Source: an uncultured Chloroflexia bacterium (GTDB lineage: Bacteria; Chloroflexota; Limnocylindria; QHBO01). Taken from it: a DNA stretch of 64,000 bases. Below are positions 2,306 to 16,895 of the stretch, in pieces. The stretch spans positions 199,572-263,571 of the forward strand of contig CAVXEH010000003.1 in the NCBI GenBank assembly GCA_963760875.1. The letters are read 5' to 3'. The notes below the pieces were generated by a model that was not told where the DNA came from, did no database searches, and saw only the letters and a list, made by a program, of their open reading frames with translations. How positions within the stretch are numbered: the first letter of the stretch is position 1; every line of letters begins with the position of its first letter. Made by a program: the position numbers and the translations under genes.

Positions 2306-2794
2306 ATGAGCCACCCTATCCTCGAGGAGCGTCCGCTGGAGCACGGCGACGCCCTCAACCTCGTTCGCCAGGCCATCGCCGAGGCGCCCGGGCTCGAGGC
2401 GGCCGCCCAGCGTGCCGTCGAGGAGCTCCACGAGCGGTTCCCGCACTACGACTGGATCGGGCTCTACTGGGTGGAGGGCAGCGACCTGGTCCTGGGCCCG
2501 TGGATAGGCCCCGAGGCGACGGAGCACACCCGCATCCCCATCGGGGTCGGGATCTGCGGGGCAGCCGCGGCATCGGGCCAGACGGAGATCGTCGATGACG
2601 TCGACGCCGATGAGCGCTACCTCGCCTGCTTCGCCACCACCCGCAGCGAGATCGTGGTGCCCATCCTGGCGGAGGGCACCGTCGTGGGCGAGATCGATAT
2701 CGACGGATCGGACCCCGCCGCCTTCGACGACACGGATCGCCGCTTCCTGGAGGAGATCGCCGCCCTCCTTGCCCCCTTGCGGCCGCGCGCCTGA
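2306..2794 (+). CDS. GAF domain protein (free methionine-(R)-sulfoxide reductase-like)
   Basis: Single GAF fold of 162 aa with a conserved Cys region (IGVGICGAAAASGQTEIVDDVDADERYLAC...EIVVPI). This resembles the fRMsr/MsrC family. Confidence 0.65.
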   Translation: MSHPILEERPLEHGDALNLVRQAIAEAPGLEAAAQRAVEELHERFPHYDWIGLYWVEGSDLVLGPWIGPEATEHTRIPIGVGICGAAAASGQTEIVDDVDADERYLACFATTRSEIVVPILAEGTVVGEIDIDGSDPAAFDDTDRRFLEEIAALLAPLRPRA

Positions 2795-2845
2795 GCGGCC
2801 GAGCGCGCACGCCGGGCGATCACCTGTAACCGCTCGCGTACGAGG

Positions 2846-3421
2846 GTGGGAATGGCCAGCAGACCGGACCGTCCCTCGGCGACGCCTGCCCCGGACGGCC
2901 CCGCTCGTGGCCGCTTCGAGGAGATCTATGACGCGCAGGTGGTGCCGATCTATCGCTTCATCTACTCGCGTGTCGGCAATCGGCCGGACGCGGAGGACCT
3001 CACCGCCCAGGTGTTCCTGCGCGCGGTGGAGGCCCTTGACACGACCCGTGACGACGCGCAGATCGCCAGCTGGCTGTACCGGGTGAGCCAGAACGCGATC
3101 GCCGACCACTGGCGGGCCTTCTATCGCCTTCCGGTGGTGGCCGCCGACGAGGTCGCGCCGGGCTGGGAACCGGTGGACACCACGGAGCCGATGACCTCCG
3201 CGCCGGAGCCTGCGTCCGATGCTCCCGCTCGGGGCCGCGTCGCCGCCCTGCTTGCACGCCTCCCCGAGAACTACCGGCGCGTCCTCGAGCTGCGGTTCAT
3301 CGAGCGCCTTTCCGTGGCGGAGACCGCCGAGCACATGGGCATCAGCCGAGGCAACGCCAAGGTGCTCCAGTACCGGGCCCTGCGCCGCGCCGCCGTCCTG
3401 GAGGAGGGGGCCGATGGCTGA
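2846..3421 (+). CDS. RNA polymerase sigma-70 factor, ECF subfamily
   Basis: Region 2 (FEEIYDAQVVPIYRFIYSRVGNRPDAEDLTAQVFLRA) and region 4 (LPENYRRVLELRFIERLSVAETAEHMGISRGNAKVLQYRALRR). Its stop overlaps the downstream start by 8 nt. Confidence 0.85.
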   Translation: MGMASRPDRPSATPAPDGPARGRFEEIYDAQVVPIYRFIYSRVGNRPDAEDLTAQVFLRAVEALDTTRDDAQIASWLYRVSQNAIADHWRAFYRLPVVAADEVAPGWEPVDTTEPMTSAPEPASDAPARGRVAALLARLPENYRRVLELRFIERLSVAETAEHMGISRGNAKVLQYRALRRAAVLEEGADG

Positions 3422-4241
3422 CCGACCGCGCGACCCGCAGCTCGAGCTGGAGTCCGCCGATCGCTTCGACCGCTACCTCGACGCGCTGGTCGCGAACCGT
3501 CGCCCCTCGCCCGAGGATGTCGCCGCTGCGGACGAGGCCGAGATGGCGCGCGCCGCCGCCGAGCTGGCGGGCGCCACCGGCAGCGGGCGGGACCCGGACC
3601 CAGCGTTCGTCGAACAGCTGCGCCTGCGGATGCGCCAGGCTGATGCCGGGATCGCCGCCGTGCGCGACACGCCGCCGCGCATCCCGGAGACGGCGGCCGG
3701 CCCCGCCGATCCCGTCATGGGGCGGATCCGGCTGACGCGCCGCGCCCTGCTGCAGGCCGGCGTCGGGGCTGCCGCCGGTCTCGCCGCCGGTGCGCTGGGT
3801 ATGGCGGCGCTGCGCGGACCGGCCGGCACCGCCGGAGGCGGGCTGCTGGGCGGAGCGTCGCCGCTCATCGGGGGCGAGGGATTCTGGCAGGCGGTGACCA
3901 CCACCGCGGACCTGCCCGTCGGAGGCGCCGTGCGCTTCCAGACTGCGGCGTTCGACGGCTACGTCGTCAACGACGGGGGCGACATCCGCGCCCTGTCATC
4001 GGTCTGCACCCACATGGGCTGCACCCTGCACTACCGCCCGGACTGGCACGACCTGCGCTGTCCGTGCCACGGTGCGAGCTTCGACCTCAACGGAGAGCTG
4101 GCGAACGGTCGCGGCCGATGGAGCAAGAGCGGCGGCTATGCGGGAGACGCCCAGGCCTATCCGATCGCCCTGCCGCCGCTGGCCCGGCCGAAGGTCAAGG
4201 TCGCCGACGGCACGGTCTACGTCTGGACCGCCCAAATCTAG
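3414..4241 (+). CDS. Anti-sigma-factor-like membrane protein with a C-terminal Rieske [2Fe-2S] domain
   Basis: The ATG at 3414 overlaps the sigma-factor stop (ATGGCTGA). It has a roughly 95-aa N-terminal cytoplasmic domain. A twin-arginine-like motif and TM helix follow (TRRALLQAGVGAAAGLAAGALG). The C-terminus carries Rieske box I CTHMGC and box II CPCHGA. The upstream part of track ORF 3219..4241 lies in a different frame over the sigma gene and is rejected. Confidence 0.65.
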   Translation: MADRPRDPQLELESADRFDRYLDALVANRRPSPEDVAAADEAEMARAAAELAGATGSGRDPDPAFVEQLRLRMRQADAGIAAVRDTPPRIPETAAGPADPVMGRIRLTRRALLQAGVGAAAGLAAGALGMAALRGPAGTAGGGLLGGASPLIGGEGFWQAVTTTADLPVGGAVRFQTAAFDGYVVNDGGDIRALSSVCTHMGCTLHYRPDWHDLRCPCHGASFDLNGELANGRGRWSKSGGYAGDAQAYPIALPPLARPKVKVADGTVYVWTAQI

Positions 4242-12084: not shown

Positions 12085-12891
12085 TCACTGCTTCTGCGTG
12101 AGGAGGAAGGTGATGAGGGCCTGCAGCTGGTCGTCGGTCAGCTGCGAGCTCGGGAAGGCCGGCATCCCGGTGGCGGTGCCGCCGTTGTAGTTGTTCGAGG
12201 AGTCCCGGATCCAGTTCGTGAAGAACGTGGCCGGATCCTTGGCGTAGTCCGCCTTCATCTTGTCGAGGCCGCTGGGCGGGTTGGGAAGGCCGGTGCCAAT
12301 CTCGTTGCCCACGTTCTGCAGGCTCGGGAAGGTTCCGGGAACGCCGCCCAGGTCGGCCTGGTGGCAGCTGACGCAGCCAACCGAGTTGTAGACCTGCTTG
12401 CCGGCGTCCGCGGTGTTGGGCACCGGCGTGGAGCTGGCGCCCGCGTTGGCCTCCGCCCAGCTCGTCACCAGGGCCACCACGGCGTTGATCTGCTGGACGG
12501 TCAGGGGTCCGCCGACCTCGCTGCTCCACGCCGGCATCACCGAGCTGGGATTGCCTGAGACCACGATTCCGCCGTAGCTGACGACGAGGTGGACGTAGTC
12601 CGGGTTGATCTTGAGCTTGGTCGCGATGCTGGGGCTGTGGAGGTTCGGGGCGTTGAGTCCCGGCTGGCCCGGAACCGGGCCGCCCATCCCGTCATCGCCG
12701 TGGCAGCGCGCGCAGCCCGCGGACGAAGGGTCGTCCTTGTTGTTGGCGAAGACCTCCTTGCCGAACGCCAGCTGCGCCTCCTCCGCGGATTGCTGGCGCT
12801 GCGCGAGGCGCGACGAATCCGTGAGCCAGTAGAACATCGTGAAGAGCGCCAGTGCGCTCACGACGATGACCCCCAGCGTCTTGATCCGCAT
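12085..12891 (-). CDS. Diheme cytochrome c
   Basis: Two CXXCH motifs (CARCH and CVSCH), an N-terminal TM anchor, and a Met-containing distal ligand region. Confidence 0.8.
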   Translation of the reverse strand: MRIKTLGVIVVSALALFTMFYWLTDSSRLAQRQQSAEEAQLAFGKEVFANNKDDPSSAGCARCHGDDGMGGPVPGQPGLNAPNLHSPSIATKLKINPDYVHLVVSYGGIVVSGNPSSVMPAWSSEVGGPLTVQQINAVVALVTSWAEANAGASSTPVPNTADAGKQVYNSVGCVSCHQADLGGVPGTFPSLQNVGNEIGTGLPNPPSGLDKMKADYAKDPATFFTNWIRDSSNNYNGGTATGMPAFPSSQLTDDQLQALITFLLTQKQ

Positions 12892-12895
12892 GTCC

Positions 12896-13558
12896 TCAGC
12901 CCGCGCAGTGCTTGCCGGTCAGGTCGGCCGCGGTCCGCGGGTCGAACGTCACGGTGCCGACCGGCGGCCCGCTGACGACCTTGCCGGTGTCCACCGAGTA
13001 GACGCCCGCGTCGCTGACCGAGATGGGGAAATGATCCATGCCGCGGGGGGCCGGACCGTCGCGCTTCTCGCTGAGGATCGTGTACTTGCTGCCGTGGCAG
13101 AGGCACTCGAACCAGTGGCTCTTCTCGCACAGCGGGGGGATCTGGCAGCCCAGGTGGGGGCACTTGCGCCAGAGCGCCATCACCGAACGATCCTTGAAGG
13201 CCAGAGCCTCGTCGACCTTCGCGCCGGGATCGGGAACGTTGGCGTCCTTGCCCAGGACCAGGTCCATGCCGGCGGGCACGTTCACGAAGAAGAGCCGGGC
13301 CTTCTGGTAGGTGTACGGCTGACCCTTGGCCCAGTCGGGCCACACGGTGAGGATGTCCTTGGCCGAGCCCAGCGCGACCACGCCGCCGAAGCCGCCGGAA
13401 AGGTTCGGCCACAGGAACGCGAGGGTGCCGCCAATGAACTCCAGGCTCAGGAGGCCCATGCCGGCGCCCAGCATGCGCCGCATGAACGTGCGTCGGCTGA
13501 TCTCGCCAGCCGGCTGCTCGGTGACGGGCCCATAGGAGAGATTCGTGTTGCTGCTCAT
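12896..13558 (-). CDS. Rieske iron-sulfur subunit of the cytochrome bc/b6f-type complex
   Basis: CPHLGC and CLCHGS Rieske boxes. Tat-like motif SRRTFMRRMLGAGMG. The ATG at 13558 overlaps the subunit IV stop (ATGA). The longer track start at 13600 is rejected. Confidence 0.85.
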   Translation of the reverse strand: MSSNTNLSYGPVTEQPAGEISRRTFMRRMLGAGMGLLSLEFIGGTLAFLWPNLSGGFGGVVALGSAKDILTVWPDWAKGQPYTYQKARLFFVNVPAGMDLVLGKDANVPDPGAKVDEALAFKDRSVMALWRKCPHLGCQIPPLCEKSHWFECLCHGSKYTILSEKRDGPAPRGMDHFPISVSDAGVYSVDTGKVVSGPPVGTVTFDPRTAADLTGKHCAG

Positions 13559-14169
13559 AGGTTGAAGAAGATCCCTTCCCATGGCCAGACCCAGTTCCAT
13601 CCCGGGCCCCTGAAGAACGATCCGATGAAGGTCACCAGCAGGCCGCCGACCATCAGGGACAGGAAGAAGACCCAGATCAGCTTGCGGTCGCGGGCCGCCT
13701 TGAACGGAGACCGGTCGACGAAGGGGATCAGCGCGAGGCCCACCAGGTAGAGGGTCGGCACCAGGACGCCGGCAACGGTCGGGTTGAAGTAGCTCAGGAT
13801 CTCCTGGAGACCCAGGAAGTACCAGGGCGCCTTGGCGACGTGCGGCGTGTTGCCGGCGTTGGCCATCTGCTCGAGCGGCGCCTGGATGAGGAGCGACGTC
13901 ACGACGAGCAGCCCCATGATCAGGGCGGCCATGAGGAACTCTGCACGGAGCAGGTGCGGCCAGGTCAGCACCGTCTCGTCGGGTCGCTTGTCGACGCGGA
14001 CCATCGACTCCTGCTTGACGTAGGCGAGCAGGCGGAACCGCTCGGTTCCCGGCACGCCGGGAGGTCCGGGGAGCTTGGGCCCGCCGCCGCGCTCGACGAC
14101 CGGCACCTGGGGCGCCTGGGTCGGAGCGTTCTTGTCGGCGGTCGCGTTCGGCCGCTTCTCGATGGTCAT
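13555..14169 (-). CDS. Cytochrome bc complex subunit IV (C-terminal half of cytochrome b, PetD-like)
   Basis: PEWYFL-type motif (APWYFLGLQEILSYF) and three TM helices. Confidence 0.8.
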   Translation of the reverse strand: MTIEKRPNATADKNAPTQAPQVPVVERGGGPKLPGPPGVPGTERFRLLAYVKQESMVRVDKRPDETVLTWPHLLRAEFLMAALIMGLLVVTSLLIQAPLEQMANAGNTPHVAKAPWYFLGLQEILSYFNPTVAGVLVPTLYLVGLALIPFVDRSPFKAARDRKLIWVFFLSLMVGGLLVTFIGSFFRGPGWNWVWPWEGIFFNL

Positions 14170-14196
14170 GGATTCGCCATCCCTATCCTACCGCGC

Positions 14197-14931
14197 TCAT
14201 ACCGGGCCGCTGATGCCGCCGTCCTTCCGGATCCTCCAGAAGTGGACGATCATCAGGATCGCGGCGATGAGCGGGAAGGCGATCACGTGCATCACGTAGA
14301 AGCGCAGGAGCGTGCCCTGCCCAACCTCGATCCCGCCCAGGAGGAAGAGCTGCGACTGGTGCGAGAGGAGCGGCGCGTAGGTGGCCATCTGCGATCCCAC
14401 GGTGACGGCCCAGAAGGCGATCTGGTCCCAGGGCAGCAGGTAGCCGGTGAAGCTCAGCCACAGGGTCGAGAACAGGAGCAGGACCCCGATCACCCAGTTG
14501 AACTCGCGCGGCGGCTTGTAGGCGCCGTGGTAGAAGACGCGGATCATGTGCAGGAAGACGGTCAGCACCATGAGGTGCGCGGCCCAGCGGTGCATGTTGC
14601 GCACGAGCTCGCCAAAGGCCACCGAGTTCTCGATGGAGACGATGTCCTGGTACGCGCGGCTCACCGAGGGCACGTAGAAGAACATCAGGTAGAGGCCGGT
14701 GACCGTGAGCGCCAGGAACAGGAAGAAGCTGATCCCGCCCAGGCAGAAGGTGTACGTGTAGCGGACCGCGTGCTTCTTGACCCGCACCGGGTGCAGGTGC
14801 AGGAACACGTTGTTCATCACAGCCAGCGCGCGCGTCCGGCTGGTAGATGGGTACGGCTGGCGGAAAAGGGAGCGCCAGATCTGCGTCTGCTTCAGGCCGC
14901 GGTACCAGTCGCCGGGTCCGGGGAAGCTCAT
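14197..14931 (-). CDS. Cytochrome b6 (N-terminal half of cytochrome b, PetB-like)
   Basis: Two heme-ligand His pairs with b6 spacing (HRWAAH...14...H in helix B; [17 protein letters not shown] in helix D). C-terminus [12 protein letters not shown]. Its start overlaps the upstream gene's stop (ATGA at 14928-14931). Confidence 0.85.
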
Positions 14932-16895
14932 CGCCGCACCGCCATGCCGGCCTGCTGGCCGATCTGCCCCAGCACGTTGTCCTTGTAGCTCTCCAACAGA
15001 ACCTTCCCGTCAGGCGTGAACCGCTCCAGCTCGAGGCGGTCCATGGTGATGCAGTTGGTGGGACACCGCTCGACGCAGAGGTTGCAGCGGATGCAGCGCT
15101 CCTCGTCGATGATCATGGCAATGCCGCGGGGCCACGACTGGAACAGGTCGATCTCGGGATCGTCGCCGCCCACCTGCGCCTTGTCGATCATGTAGATCAC
15201 GCCCTCGGGGCAGACATCGGCGCAGAGCCCGCACAGGATACAGCGCGGTCCATCGATGTTGATGTTGTGGTTGCACTGCAGGCAGCGCTGCCCTTCCTCG
15301 ATGGCGCTCCGGGTGTCGTAGCCCACCTCGACCAGGCTCGTGAAGTCGCGGCGCAGCTCCGGCGGCGCCATGGGGACGTGGTGGCGGGTGAAAGCCTCGT
15401 AGTCCTTGGGCATGTCGTGCTCGAGCGCCTGGGTGATCACCGCCCGGTTGATGACCGGCAGCTCCTCCAGCGCCTCGCCGCGCTCGCCGCGGAGCCAGCG
15501 GTCGATGGACCGAGCGGCGCGGCGGCCACGCCCGGCGGACTCGATGATGGTCGCCGGGCCGGTGACGAAGTCGCCGCAGGCGAAGACGCCCGGGGTGCTG
15601 GTCTCGAACGTGTCGGGGTTGATGGTCAGGTAGCCGCGCTTGAACGCGAAGGCGTCGCCATCGGCCCCGTTGCCGTTCGTCGCGCCGTTGGCGGCAGGTG
15701 GCGGGGTGCGCCAGGCGGAGACCGATCCACCCGGCAGGACCGAGCGGCTGTCGGTCACGCCAAGGTGGCGGTTGAGGTGGCTGCCGTACTCGCCCAGGAC
15801 GTTGTTGTCGGCAGCCTGGCTGGTGCAGGGCACCACCATGTCGCAGGGAACCACGAACTCGCTGCCCGGGATGGGCTCGGCGGATCGGCGGCCGGAGGCG
15901 TCCGGCGGACCCAGGCGGGTGCGCTGGAACTTCATGCCCACGACCTTGCCGTGCTCGTCACCGATGACCTCCACCGGGGAGGCGAAGAACTCGAAGCGGA
16001 CCCCCTCGAAGCGGGTCTCGTGCTGCTCCTCCTCGTCCACGACCATCTCGTCGGGACCGCGGCGGTAGAGGATGGTCGAGGTCTTGGCGCCCAGGCGCAG
16101 CGCGGTGCGCGACGAGTCCATGGCGGTGTAGCCGCCGCCGATGACCAGCACGTGGTCGCCGACCCACTGCTCCTCGCCAAGGTTGGCGCGCTTGAGGAAG
16201 TCCACGCCGTAGATGACGCCGTCCAGCTCCTCACCCGGGACGTTCATGGCCACCGGGAACATGCAGCCGGTCGCCACCACCACCGCGTCATGCCGCGTGC
16301 GCAGCTCGTCCATGGTGACGTCGCGGCCGACCTCGACGTTGTAGTGGAACTCCACGCCGTGCTTGGCGACCCAGGCGACGTCGAGCTCGATGACGTCGCG
16401 GGGCAGGCGGAAGGCCGGCACACCGATGAGCGTCGTTCCGCCGCCCGACGGAAGGGCGTCGTACACGTGGACCTCGTGGCCGTCCGCGGCGAGGTCCTTG
16501 GCCACCGAGAGGCCCGCGGGCCCCGCGCCGATGACGCCCACGCTGTGCCCGGTGGGTGCCGCGACCTGCACGTTGTCGGGCATGTTGTTGGCGTAGTGCC
16601 AGTCCACCAGGAAGCGCTTCATGGCGCGGATGGCGAGCGGCTTGTCGATGTCCGCGCGGCGGCAGGCCTTCTCGCAGGGTGCGCTGCAGACGTACCCGCA
16701 GATGGCGGCGACCGGGTTCGGGTCGCGGGCCAGGATGTAGCCCTCCTCGAAGCGACCCTCCGCGGCCAGCATGAGGTAGCCGCGGCAGTTGGTGTTGACC
16801 GGGCAGCCTTCCTGGCACTCGATGTTGCACTGCAGCCAGTCGACGCCTACCTCGGCAGTCTGAAACCGGAGCGGAATTGCGTTCTCGGAGATCAA
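14928..16895 (-). CDS. GltD-like (glutamate synthase small subunit / SudA-like) FAD-NAD(P) oxidoreductase fused to a 2x[4Fe-4S] ferredoxin domain. First gene of the cytochrome b operon.
   Basis: N-terminal Cys cluster C..C...C. Two Rossmann folds ([13 protein letters not shown] and [12 protein letters not shown]). C-terminal ferredoxin motifs [26 protein letters not shown] and [12 protein letters not shown]. Confidence 0.8.

Follow-up and report, generated by a model that had tools for sequence, protein, structure and literature searches.

Pairs of a sigma factor of the extracytoplasmic function (ECF) type and an anti-sigma factor are a major bacterial route of extracytoplasmic sensing, although it is not known to what most groups of such pairs respond. 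What, then, is the role of a Rieske [2Fe-2S] protein whose gene overlaps the gene of an ECF sigma factor? This question is raised by a 64,000-nt stretch of contig CAVXEH010000003.1 from an uncultured Chloroflexia bacterium of the Limnocylindria (positions 199,572 to 263,571; "the window" denotes this whole stretch). Here, an ECF sigma gene is followed by a gene for a predicted membrane protein that combines an N-terminal domain of about 100 amino acids (aa; the N-domain), a twin-arginine (RR) motif, a transmembrane (TM) helix, and a C-terminal Rieske domain. The original prediction, made from the DNA sequence of the window, regarded this Rieske protein as an anti-sigma-like partner of the sigma factor. 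From the genomic context analyzed below, we estimate the probability that the Rieske partner binds and inhibits the sigma factor, that is, that it is a putative anti-sigma factor, at roughly 0.6.

If an exported Rieske center is the sensor, it would, so far as found, be the first case in which an iron-sulfur cluster outside the cytoplasm feeds into an anti-sigma factor, and also the first such case that depends on twin-arginine translocation (Tat), and the electron-transfer or metal environment at the outer face of the membrane would be linked directly to transcription. The question also matters for annotation, as naming such proteins respiratory or oxygenase Rieske proteins misleads metabolic reconstructions of uncultured groups. 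Furthermore, the sigma gene is preceded by a conserved DNA element which, should it prove to be a promoter, challenges the fixed −35/−10 geometry that is assumed for ECF sigma factors. Cultured and genetically tractable carriers, Amycolatopsis mediterranei and Kutzneria, make the module testable.

Results

The sigma gene and the Rieske gene overlap

The upstream gene encodes an ECF (group IV) sigma factor, a group defined by the presence of the sigma2 and sigma4 domains only and a length of about 170–200 aa. Pfam Sigma70_r2 was detected at aa 34–91 and r4/r4_2 at aa 131–181, and the score against the generic ECF model TIGR02937 was 81 bits, compared to a cutoff of 42.9. As the start codon, the ATG at position 2852 is favored over the in-frame GTG at 2846, which was the start given by the open reading frame (ORF) lister. 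In more than 70 related loci, the homologous gene begins at the equivalent ATG, and the public record contains a 189-aa gene call that is identical in sequence to the protein starting at ATG 2852. Therefore, the gene was placed at 2852–3421. Among the NCBIfam models, TIGR02952 (BldN family) scored best, with 104 bits versus an equivalog cutoff of 206, and the closest solved sigma factor is sigma-BldN of Streptomyces venezuelae (6dxo_A, E 6e-21), followed by SigW (1e-13). Because the best family match is below its cutoff and 6dxo_A is the top PDB match, the sigma factor can be classified, by sequence, as BldN-like, but not as a BldN orthologue.

The stop codon of the sigma gene (TGA, 3419–3421) and the start codon of the Rieske gene (ATG, 3414) lie in an 8 nt overlap, ATGGCTGA, and a GGAGGAGGGGG stretch is located 5–15 nt 5′ of this ATG. 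Thus, the ORF coordinates and the Pfam matches bear out the predicted ECF sigma gene with an 8 nt overlap onto the downstream gene. The same ATGnnTGA configuration was observed in 77 of 85 related Limnocylindria loci, and the remaining eight loci are probably start-codon calling errors of the count, rather than real differences.

The gene pair is conserved in three phyla

Full-length homologues of the Rieske partner are numerous, with 897 proteins in one clade and 594 in a second. The names carried by the closest homologues place the organism in Candidatus Limnocylindria (Chloroflexota). In the Limnocylindria, the pair is syntenic in more than 80 species genomes. The gene order begins with a free-standing GAF protein, followed by the sigma factor and the Rieske protein; in most cases a small convergent ORF with a TM helix comes next. 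This order is kept in 80 species-level genomes wherever the contig extent permits. A profile search with the N-domain against 1.84 billion representative proteins retrieved 49 matches. Every complete match inspected was fused to the RR motif, the TM helix, and the Rieske domain, with the exception of three very long proteins in which only short repeated stretches matched. The identical architecture was found in the distant matches (P0156, P0158, P0162, and P0168 in our numbering). Since the complete matches inspected have this arrangement alone, the N-domain is specific to the pairing with the sigma factor.

Two further searches, seeded by P0168 and P0287, revealed hundreds of members in Dormibacterota, Dehalococcoidia, and Actinomycetota, with cultured carriers in the genera Amycolatopsis (including A. 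mediterranei S699), Kutzneria, Kribbella, and Actinokineospora. Altogether, the family encompasses hundreds of clusters at 90% identity, which belong to abundant soil lineages (Limnocylindria, Dormibacterota) and to the cultured actinomycetes. In eight loci inspected (L085–L090, L171, and L172), an ECF sigma gene is in each case located directly 5′ of the Rieske gene, with an overlap of 1–4 nt, and the remaining neighbors vary. Across the loci from Limnocylindria, Dormibacterota, unassigned soil contigs, Amycolatopsis, and Kutzneria, the sigma gene and the gene for the N-domain–Rieske protein are the only invariant pair. Conservation of the pair in relatives, proposed earlier as a check, was thus found in three phyla, Chloroflexota, Dormibacterota, and Actinomycetota.

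An unbiased set of metagenome loci was recovered via the Rieske boxes, and N-domain-bearing genes were counted if at least 650 nt of upstream sequence was present. An adjacent upstream sigma gene was found for 43 of the 44 N-domain-bearing genes, but for none of the 12 relatives that consist of the Rieske part only. The overlap between the two genes was 4 nt in 34 loci and 1 nt in four loci (38 of 43). No other result speaks as strongly as this difference, 43/44 versus 0/12, for the N-domain being the part of the protein that is connected with the sigma factor. Altogether, the Rieske gene is located at position +1 behind the sigma gene, is translationally coupled to it, and is conserved in this pairing, which is the arrangement that characterizes genes of membrane anti-sigma factors.

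The sole N-domain-bearing Rieske gene without an adjacent sigma gene is that of locus L111. A sigma-like match on the other strand lies about 740 nt upstream of it, and the locus may be rearranged.

Domains and predicted structure of the Rieske partner

Pfam detected a Rieske domain (PF00355) at aa 158–232 with an E-value of 1e-12, and aa 1 to about 100 had no Pfam or NCBIfam match. A full-length AlphaFold2 model, based on an alignment of 30 sequences, predicts the following order: three helices (aa 8–26, 38–54, and 63–84), a disordered Pro-rich linker, the TM helix (aa 109–132), a second linker, and a Rieske fold (aa 157–272) with values of the predicted local distance difference test (pLDDT) above 90. 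The secondary structure of the model, together with the positive charges and the RR motif on the N-terminal side of the only TM helix, predicts a cytoplasmic N-domain, a sole TM helix, and an extracytoplasmic C-domain. This topology matches the layout of membrane-bound ECF anti-sigma factors, so that the proposed anti-sigma-like layout reappears in the AlphaFold2 model. Several motifs of the N-domain are conserved across phyla, namely RF..YL.AL, RRP/RPSP, A..AAEL, and PDPAFV.QLR.R.

Eight residues are invariant in close as well as in distant relatives: R109, R110, C198, H200, C203, C216, C218, and H219. They comprise the twin arginine, the four cluster ligands (C198, H200, C216, and H219), and the disulfide pair (C203 and C218). 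Hence, the predicted twin-arginine-like motif and the complete Rieske boxes, CTHMGC and CPCHGA, proved to be not only present, but invariant at the arginines and ligands. The protein has all features of bc1/b6f/AioB-type Rieske proteins, that is, the C-x-H-x-G-C and C-x-C-H motifs, the disulfide pair, and the Rieske fold. In Foldseek searches with the Rieske domain, the soluble domain from Chlorobaculum (8hn2, TMt score 0.80) and the plasma-membrane protein PetC3 from Synechocystis (5cxm, TMt 0.85) were retrieved; further nearest solved relatives of the C-domain are arsenite oxidase AioB and Kuenenia kuste4569.

The Tat-type motif (L/I)(S/T)RRxLL is invariant in the family. It corresponds to the pattern of Tat substrates, S/T-R-R-x-F/L-L followed by a hydrophobic segment and a cofactor-containing passenger, and the RR region aligns with the region of the Tat signal in AioB. 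An unusual feature is the position of the motif, which is preceded by about 100 residues. Actinobacterial QcrA proteins have internal Tat motifs after long N-terminal regions.

Box II reads CPCHGASF. The second and the fourth residue past the ligand His are thus Ala and Phe, of which the Phe is invariant in the family. In bc1 Rieske proteins, these two positions are occupied by Ser and Tyr, the hydrogen bonds of which raise the potential. Judged by mutant studies of bc1 complexes, the potential of the Rieske center is probably lower than that of bc1-type centers.

The protein is distinct from the respiratory Rieske subunit of the window

One alternative, already named in the original prediction, is that the protein is a Rieske subunit of a bc/b6f-type complex or of an oxygenase that is encoded elsewhere, and that its adjacency to the sigma gene is incidental. 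The names of public copies seem to favor this explanation, as they include "cytochrome b6-f complex iron-sulfur subunit", "ubiquinol-cytochrome c reductase iron-sulfur subunit", and "ring-hydroxylating ferredoxin subunit". More generally, the named copies are annotated as Rieske, QcrA, b6f, 2Fe-2S ferredoxin, ring-hydroxylating ferredoxin subunit, Tat signal sequence, or hypothetical protein, and none of them as anti-sigma factor. In addition, the NCBIfam models of PetC, QcrA, and AioB gave weak matches. However, these matches are far below the cutoffs: the scores for the PetC, QcrA, AioB, and proteobacterial Rieske models were 30–35 bits, compared to cutoffs of 95–275, so that the protein does not belong to the PetC or QcrA families.

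Furthermore, the window encodes a separate, canonical operon of cytochrome b, Rieske protein, and cytochrome c (12085–14931). Its products form a complex of the b6f-like or bc type, so that this complex is already provided with a Rieske subunit. The Rieske protein of this operon and the sigma-linked protein share 31% identity over only 45 residues. A cytochrome b gene adjacent to the Rieske partner was absent from all related loci examined. Lastly, the adjacency to the sigma gene is kept over three phyla and is thus not incidental. Therefore, the explanation as a canonical subunit of a bc complex or an oxygenase is already contradicted by the present data, and we regard it as highly improbable.

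A conserved element precedes the sigma gene and a small set of envelope genes

When the sequences preceding the sigma gene were aligned for about 80 Limnocylindria loci, an element, (C/T)GTAAC-N6-CGTA, proved to be almost invariant 12–16 nt before the start codon. The CGTA box carries 1.7–1.9 bits, and the element is present both in loci where it overlaps the stop codon of the preceding gene and in loci where it does not. In the window, the element is tGTAACCGCTCGCGTA, and it is the sole exact copy of GTAAC-N6-CGTA in the 64 kb. Mostly with a spacer of 7 nt, it also precedes the sigma gene in Dormibacterota, Amycolatopsis, Kutzneria, and the metagenome loci (positions, by locus: L086:924, L087:5364/5367, L088:5435/6664, L171:3359/3363, and L172:3410/4657).

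In 1.3 Mb of related loci, 183 copies were detected, whereas about 10 are expected from the base composition. Nearly all copies that were traced to a downstream gene precede either the sigma gene or genes for exported or membrane proteins. Cupredoxin genes are the most prominent of these: they are preceded by the element in at least 37 Limnocylindria loci, upstream of the HxlR gene or of the gene for the GAF protein, and a cupredoxin gene is located directly downstream of the Rieske gene in L086, L088, L113, L159, and L172. Other genes with the element encode a PF03640 lipoprotein (L139, L145, and L147), DoxX (L097), a LysM protein (L116), and, in Amycolatopsis, a divergently transcribed Tat-signal VCPO/PAP2-like protein (L087 and L171). 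This distribution is the pattern expected of an autoregulated ECF sigma factor with a small, envelope-directed regulon.

In one subclade, a sigma-like paralogue of 240–260 aa with its own GTAAC-N7-CGTA is located just upstream of the sigma gene (L116:3240, L122:535, L127:105, L135:3689, L138:3629, L143:3576, and L157:278). It is often arranged back-to-back with a divergent gene for a membrane protein that is driven by the same element.

The two boxes are equal to those of characterized promoters, CGTAAC-N16-CGTTGA of BldN (PMC2375139), CGTAAC-N16-CGATGA of ShbA, and GTAAC-N17-18-CGAT of SigD (both PMC12019637). However, the spacer of 6–7 nt is about 10 bp, that is, about one helical turn, shorter. 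A further conserved −35 or −10 box was not found on either side of the element. Judged from the sequences, CGTA is the more plausible −10 box, in which case GTAAC would be located near −22, because the start codons leave no space for a transcription start site 35 nt past GTAAC. A promoter with normal spacing, GTAAC-N16-CGnTGA, was also considered and rejected. Many Limnocylindria leaders contain CGGTGA at N16, but it is only weakly conserved (0.3–0.8 bits) and is absent in the other clades as well as in the window, and it would put the start site inside the ORF.

Alternatively, the element could be an operator, a direct repeat of CGTAAC/CGTAtC with a period of 12–13 bp, for another DNA-binding regulator that has both the sigma operon and the cupredoxin genes under its control. 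The resemblance between the two boxes, the spacer that is about 10 bp below those of the ECF promoters with the same boxes (BldN N16, ShbA N16, and SigD N17-18), and the lack of an additional conserved −35 or −10 box nearby would all be explained. On the other hand, the sigma factor is the only DNA-binding protein that is conserved beside the element across phyla, and both boxes are exactly those of its closest characterized relatives. Moreover, the sigma gene never lacks the element, as autoregulation of an ECF sigma factor predicts, and its distances of 9–45 nt to the start codons suit a promoter with CGTA as −10 box. Therefore, an operator is the less probable of the two functions, but it has an appreciable chance of being correct, and it could be reconciled with a sigma/anti-sigma relationship of the two proteins.

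A possible anti-sigma role of the N-domain

The N-domain behaves like an anti-sigma domain with regard to its position, its coupling, its size, and its predicted topology. Several results weigh against this interpretation. First, when 19 diverse N-domains were compared to Pfam with E-values up to 10, no recurrent family was found, and only one of the 19 matched zf-HC2, with an E-value of 0.12. Second, profiles of the N-domain against the sequences of the PDB, again with E-values up to 10, retrieved no chain, including RsbN in 6DXO, and yielded nothing or noise. Third, a Foldseek search of the PDB with a model of the isolated N-domain retrieved nothing below an E-value of 4, a search that is uninformative due to the low predicted TM-score (pTM) of 0.34; the model contains three confident helices, the packing of which is not confident. 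Fourth, the co-transcription with the sigma gene would also fit if the Rieske protein were a member of the regulon, e.g., the redox partner of a cupredoxin. Fifth, the spacer of the element is 6–7 nt, compared to 16–18 nt in ECF promoters, and the element may be the operator of another factor. Sixth, this window contains neither a cupredoxin gene nor a second copy of the element.

Class I anti-sigma domains are recognized by a profile match (zf-HC2, PF13490) or by a three-helix bundle plus a fourth helix, often with an HxxxCxxC motif. The N-domain has three helices only and no HxxxCxxC or other His/Cys motif, and it does not belong to this class. A comparison with RsbN, which represents class III, gave a mixed result: the number and lengths of the helices and the relatedness of the sigma factors agree, and HMMER and Foldseek (with the model of pTM 0.34) found no match; the fold of RsbN itself has been defined solely in complex. 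The N-domain may work like a class III domain, which would be a resemblance and not a demonstrated homology. As no likeness of the N-domain in sequence or fold to known anti-sigma domains was detected, we infer the binding of the sigma factor from the context of the gene. Of the prediction that the Rieske protein is the dedicated membrane partner of the sigma factor, the genetic part is well supported by the pairing across phyla, the 0/12 control, the putative regulon, and the separate bc operon, whereas a similarity of the N-domain to known anti-sigma domains did not emerge.

The regulon-member argument leads to a second alternative, namely that the protein is an electron-transfer component, either the redox partner of a cupredoxin or an accessory Rieske protein like PetC3, that is merely encoded in the operon or regulon of the sigma factor. 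The N-domain would then be an extension for assembly, for binding of a Tat chaperone, or for anchoring, and the sigma factor would be controlled elsewhere. A complete bc/b6f/AioB-type Rieske fold with its disulfide would be well suited to electron transfer, many loci have cupredoxin genes immediately downstream or in the vicinity, homology of the N-domain to anti-sigma factors is lacking, and the public annotation is QcrA or Rieske. However, cupredoxin genes are missing not only from the window but also from L089 and L090, both of Dormibacterota, as well as from Amycolatopsis, and neither a cytochrome b nor another catalytic partner is conserved nearby. The alternative also does not account for the linkage of the N-domain to a directly upstream sigma gene (43/44 versus 0/12), or for the conservation across phyla of a stop/start coupling that is typical of stoichiometric sigma/anti-sigma pairs. 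In addition, no other candidate regulator of the sigma factor is conserved across clades. We therefore consider a role restricted to electron transfer unlikely, and a putative anti-sigma function of the Rieske partner remains the preferred interpretation.

Neighboring genes

The coordinates of the two genes, their parts, and further features of the window are listed in Table 1. Throughout the Limnocylindria, and only there, the gene directly upstream of the sigma gene is the gene for the single-GAF protein. This protein was considered as a sensor partner and rejected, because it is a homologue of free methionine-R-sulfoxide reductase (fRMsr; 1vhm is YebR) and its synteny is confined to the Limnocylindria. 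According to its sequence, the fRMsr-like gene would encode an enzyme for the repair of oxidative damage, not a signaling GAF domain. On the other side, most Limnocylindria loci have the small convergent ORF beside the Rieske gene; this ORF had no family match in profile scans.

Many Limnocylindria (e.g., L001–L003) have one or two cupredoxin genes and a gene for an HxlR-type regulator about 1–3.5 kb upstream of the sigma gene, and in relatives of the class, the cytochrome c maturation cluster ccmABCEF lies divergently beside these genes. In the subclade of the window, a MarR-type gene (3–272) takes the place of the cupredoxin/HxlR/ccm neighborhood.

A second, "conventional" ECF/anti-sigma pair had been predicted at 357–1945. 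A sigma gene with an overlapping gene for a single-TM partner does exist there, but the partner has no recognizable anti-sigma domain; its only match was a weak one to SgcJ/EcaC-like proteins (E 0.013). In the closest relatives, which lack this pair, the MarR gene abuts the fRMsr gene, and by this comparison the pair is a genome-specific insertion unrelated to the sigma/Rieske module.

Table 1. Features of the window that are discussed in the text (positions in nt from the first letter of the window).
Feature	Position	Strand	Basis or remark
Single-TM partner of the second ECF sigma factor, 4-nt overlap	357–1400	−	no recognizable anti-sigma domain
Second ECF sigma factor	1397–1945	−	
Free methionine-R-sulfoxide reductase-like single-GAF protein	2306–2794	+	Pfam GAF; PDB 3mmh, 1vhm, 1f5m, E 1e-20 to 1e-27
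Conserved cis-element (GTAAC-N6-CGTA), located 12 nt before the ATG of the sigma gene; putative, likely sigma-dependent autoregulatory promoter element	2825–2840	+	
ECF sigma factor, BldN-like, 189 aa	2852–3421	+	Pfam Sigma70_r2, r4_2, r4
Putative anti-sigma factor, 275 aa (three-helix N-domain, Tat motif/TM anchor, predicted exported Rieske [2Fe-2S] domain)	3414–4241	+	
Cytoplasmic N-domain, aa 1–100, helices 8–26, 38–54, 63–84/85; candidate sigma-binding module	3414–3713	+	AlphaFold2
Twin-arginine motif LTRRALLQ (RR = aa 109–110) and Gly/Ala-rich TM helix (aa 109–132)	3732–3809	+	
Rieske [2Fe-2S] domain, aa 157–272	3882–4229	+	PF00355, AlphaFold2
Rieske box I, CTHMGC	4005–4022	+	
Rieske box II, CPCHGA	4059–4076	+	
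Small convergent ORF, 68–69 aa, Pro-rich N-terminus, C-terminal TM helix	4262–4471	−	tblastn synteny
Dihaem cytochrome c	12085–12891	−	
Canonical Rieske protein, CPHLGC...CLCHGS	12896–13600	−	
Cytochrome b, C-terminal part/subunit IV	13555–14169	−	
Cytochrome b, N-terminal part	14197–14931	−	
Pyr_redox_2/4Fe-4S protein, follows the cytochrome operon	14928–16895		

Discussion

A possible mechanism and signal

The results suggest a two-gene module in which one mRNA would encode a BldN-like ECF sigma factor together with its dedicated single-pass partner, the two being produced by translational coupling. In the cytoplasm, the three-helix N-domain would sequester the sigma factor at the membrane. 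The Rieske domain would acquire its [2Fe-2S] cluster in the cytoplasm, and the Tat system would then move the folded domain across the membrane, with the uncleaved RR/TM segment as an anchor. We infer this export route because the RR motif is invariant, because of the disulfide cysteines, and because of the precedent of bc1/b6f Rieske proteins and AioB. The latter proteins are loaded with their cluster and exported by Tat in the folded state, and their RR/TM segment is retained as an uncleaved anchor.

A changed state of the exported cluster could then release the sigma factor; the change might be in its oxidation state, its loss (due to oxidants, metals, or iron shortage), or a failure of assembly or export. 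The free sigma factor would transcribe its own operon and a few genes for exported and membrane proteins, presumably those marked by GTAAC-N6/7-CGTA. The main target would be cupredoxin, and in other lineages the targets would be the PF03640 lipoprotein, DoxX, the LysM protein, and the VCPO/PAP2-like protein. The redox, O2, or NO signal suggested in the original prediction is neither supported nor contradicted by the data. The cupredoxin-centered regulon, the ccm genes beside the locus in relatives, and the fRMsr gene upstream suggest that the signal lies in redox, metal, or oxidative conditions outside the cytoplasm, rather than in a specific gas.

A more elaborate variant, which we offer as speculation with a rather small chance of being correct in all its parts, is a switch coupled to assembly and export. 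Only a cluster-loaded, folded Rieske domain would pass the proofreading of the Tat system and result in a stable anti-sigma factor, and failure of Fe-S assembly or destruction of the cluster by iron shortage, oxidants, or copper would release the sigma factor. It would then activate cupredoxin and envelope-repair genes from a compact promoter of a kind not seen before, in which the −35-type box CGTAAC would lie nearer by one helical turn to the −10-type box CGTA than is usual.

Comparison with known systems

The closest comparison is RsbN, the class III anti-sigma factor of sigma-BldN in S. venezuelae (PDB 6DXO), since BldN is the closest solved relative of the sigma factor of the window. According to the published description, RsbN has three helices, of which the third is long, with residues 1–91 as the minimal binding region; one TM helix at 118–139 is followed by an extracytoplasmic C-domain; and the protein is restricted to Streptomyces and has no sequence similarity to other anti-sigma factors (PMC6101532). 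The predicted layout of the Rieske partner is the same, with helices at 8–26, 38–54, and 63–85 and a TM helix at 109–132. Nevertheless, the two N-domains have no detectable sequence similarity, the outer domain of RsbN is not a Rieske domain, and a Tat motif, present in the window protein, is not mentioned for RsbN in the passages of PMC6101532 consulted. The promoters show a corresponding mixture of likeness and difference: the BldN boxes CGTAAC and CGT match those of the element described here, but are separated by 16 nt instead of 6–7 nt.

With anti-sigma factors of class I (zf-HC2/RseA, ChrR, RsiW, RskA, and RslA), the Rieske partner shares the +1 position of its gene, the translational coupling, the single-pass topology with a cytoplasmic N-terminus, and a helical domain of about 100 aa; the mean length of class I domains (ASDI) is 101 ± 33 aa (PMC7406223). 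In contrast to these domains, it has three helices instead of a three-helix bundle with a fourth helix, it lacks HxxxCxxC, and its similarity to zf-HC2 is limited to the one match among 19 with an E-value of 0.12.

Iron-sulfur clusters occur in other anti-sigma factors. RsmA of S. coelicolor is a soluble, cytoplasmic anti-sigma factor with a cysteine-ligated [2Fe-2S] cluster. An Fe-S cluster has also been reported in RshA of M. tuberculosis (PMC3427169). In the proposed mechanism, the cluster would likewise be the sensing cofactor. Unlike the cytoplasmic, soluble, cysteine-ligated RsmA and RshA, however, the partner described here is a membrane protein with a His2Cys2 Rieske center in a domain that is predicted to be exported by Tat.

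Among small stand-alone or accessory Rieske proteins, PetC3 (5cxm), 8hn2, AioB, and kuste4569 are the best matches of the C-domain in structure and sequence. Like the partner, they have a compact fold, a disulfide, and an RR signal-anchor of the Tat type, but none of them has a cytoplasmic N-domain of about 100 aa or is encoded behind a sigma gene. Full-text literature searches did not turn up a sigma/Rieske pairing, and Rieske proteins are not mentioned in the main text of the ECF reclassification of 2021, although the neighborhood may be listed in its supplement or in the ECF Hub. Taken together, the kind of system is known, an ECF sigma factor with a membrane-bound, anti-sigma-like partner; relative to the literature found, the new features are the Rieske domain as the putative sensor module, the implied Tat route, and an undescribed family of cytoplasmic domains.

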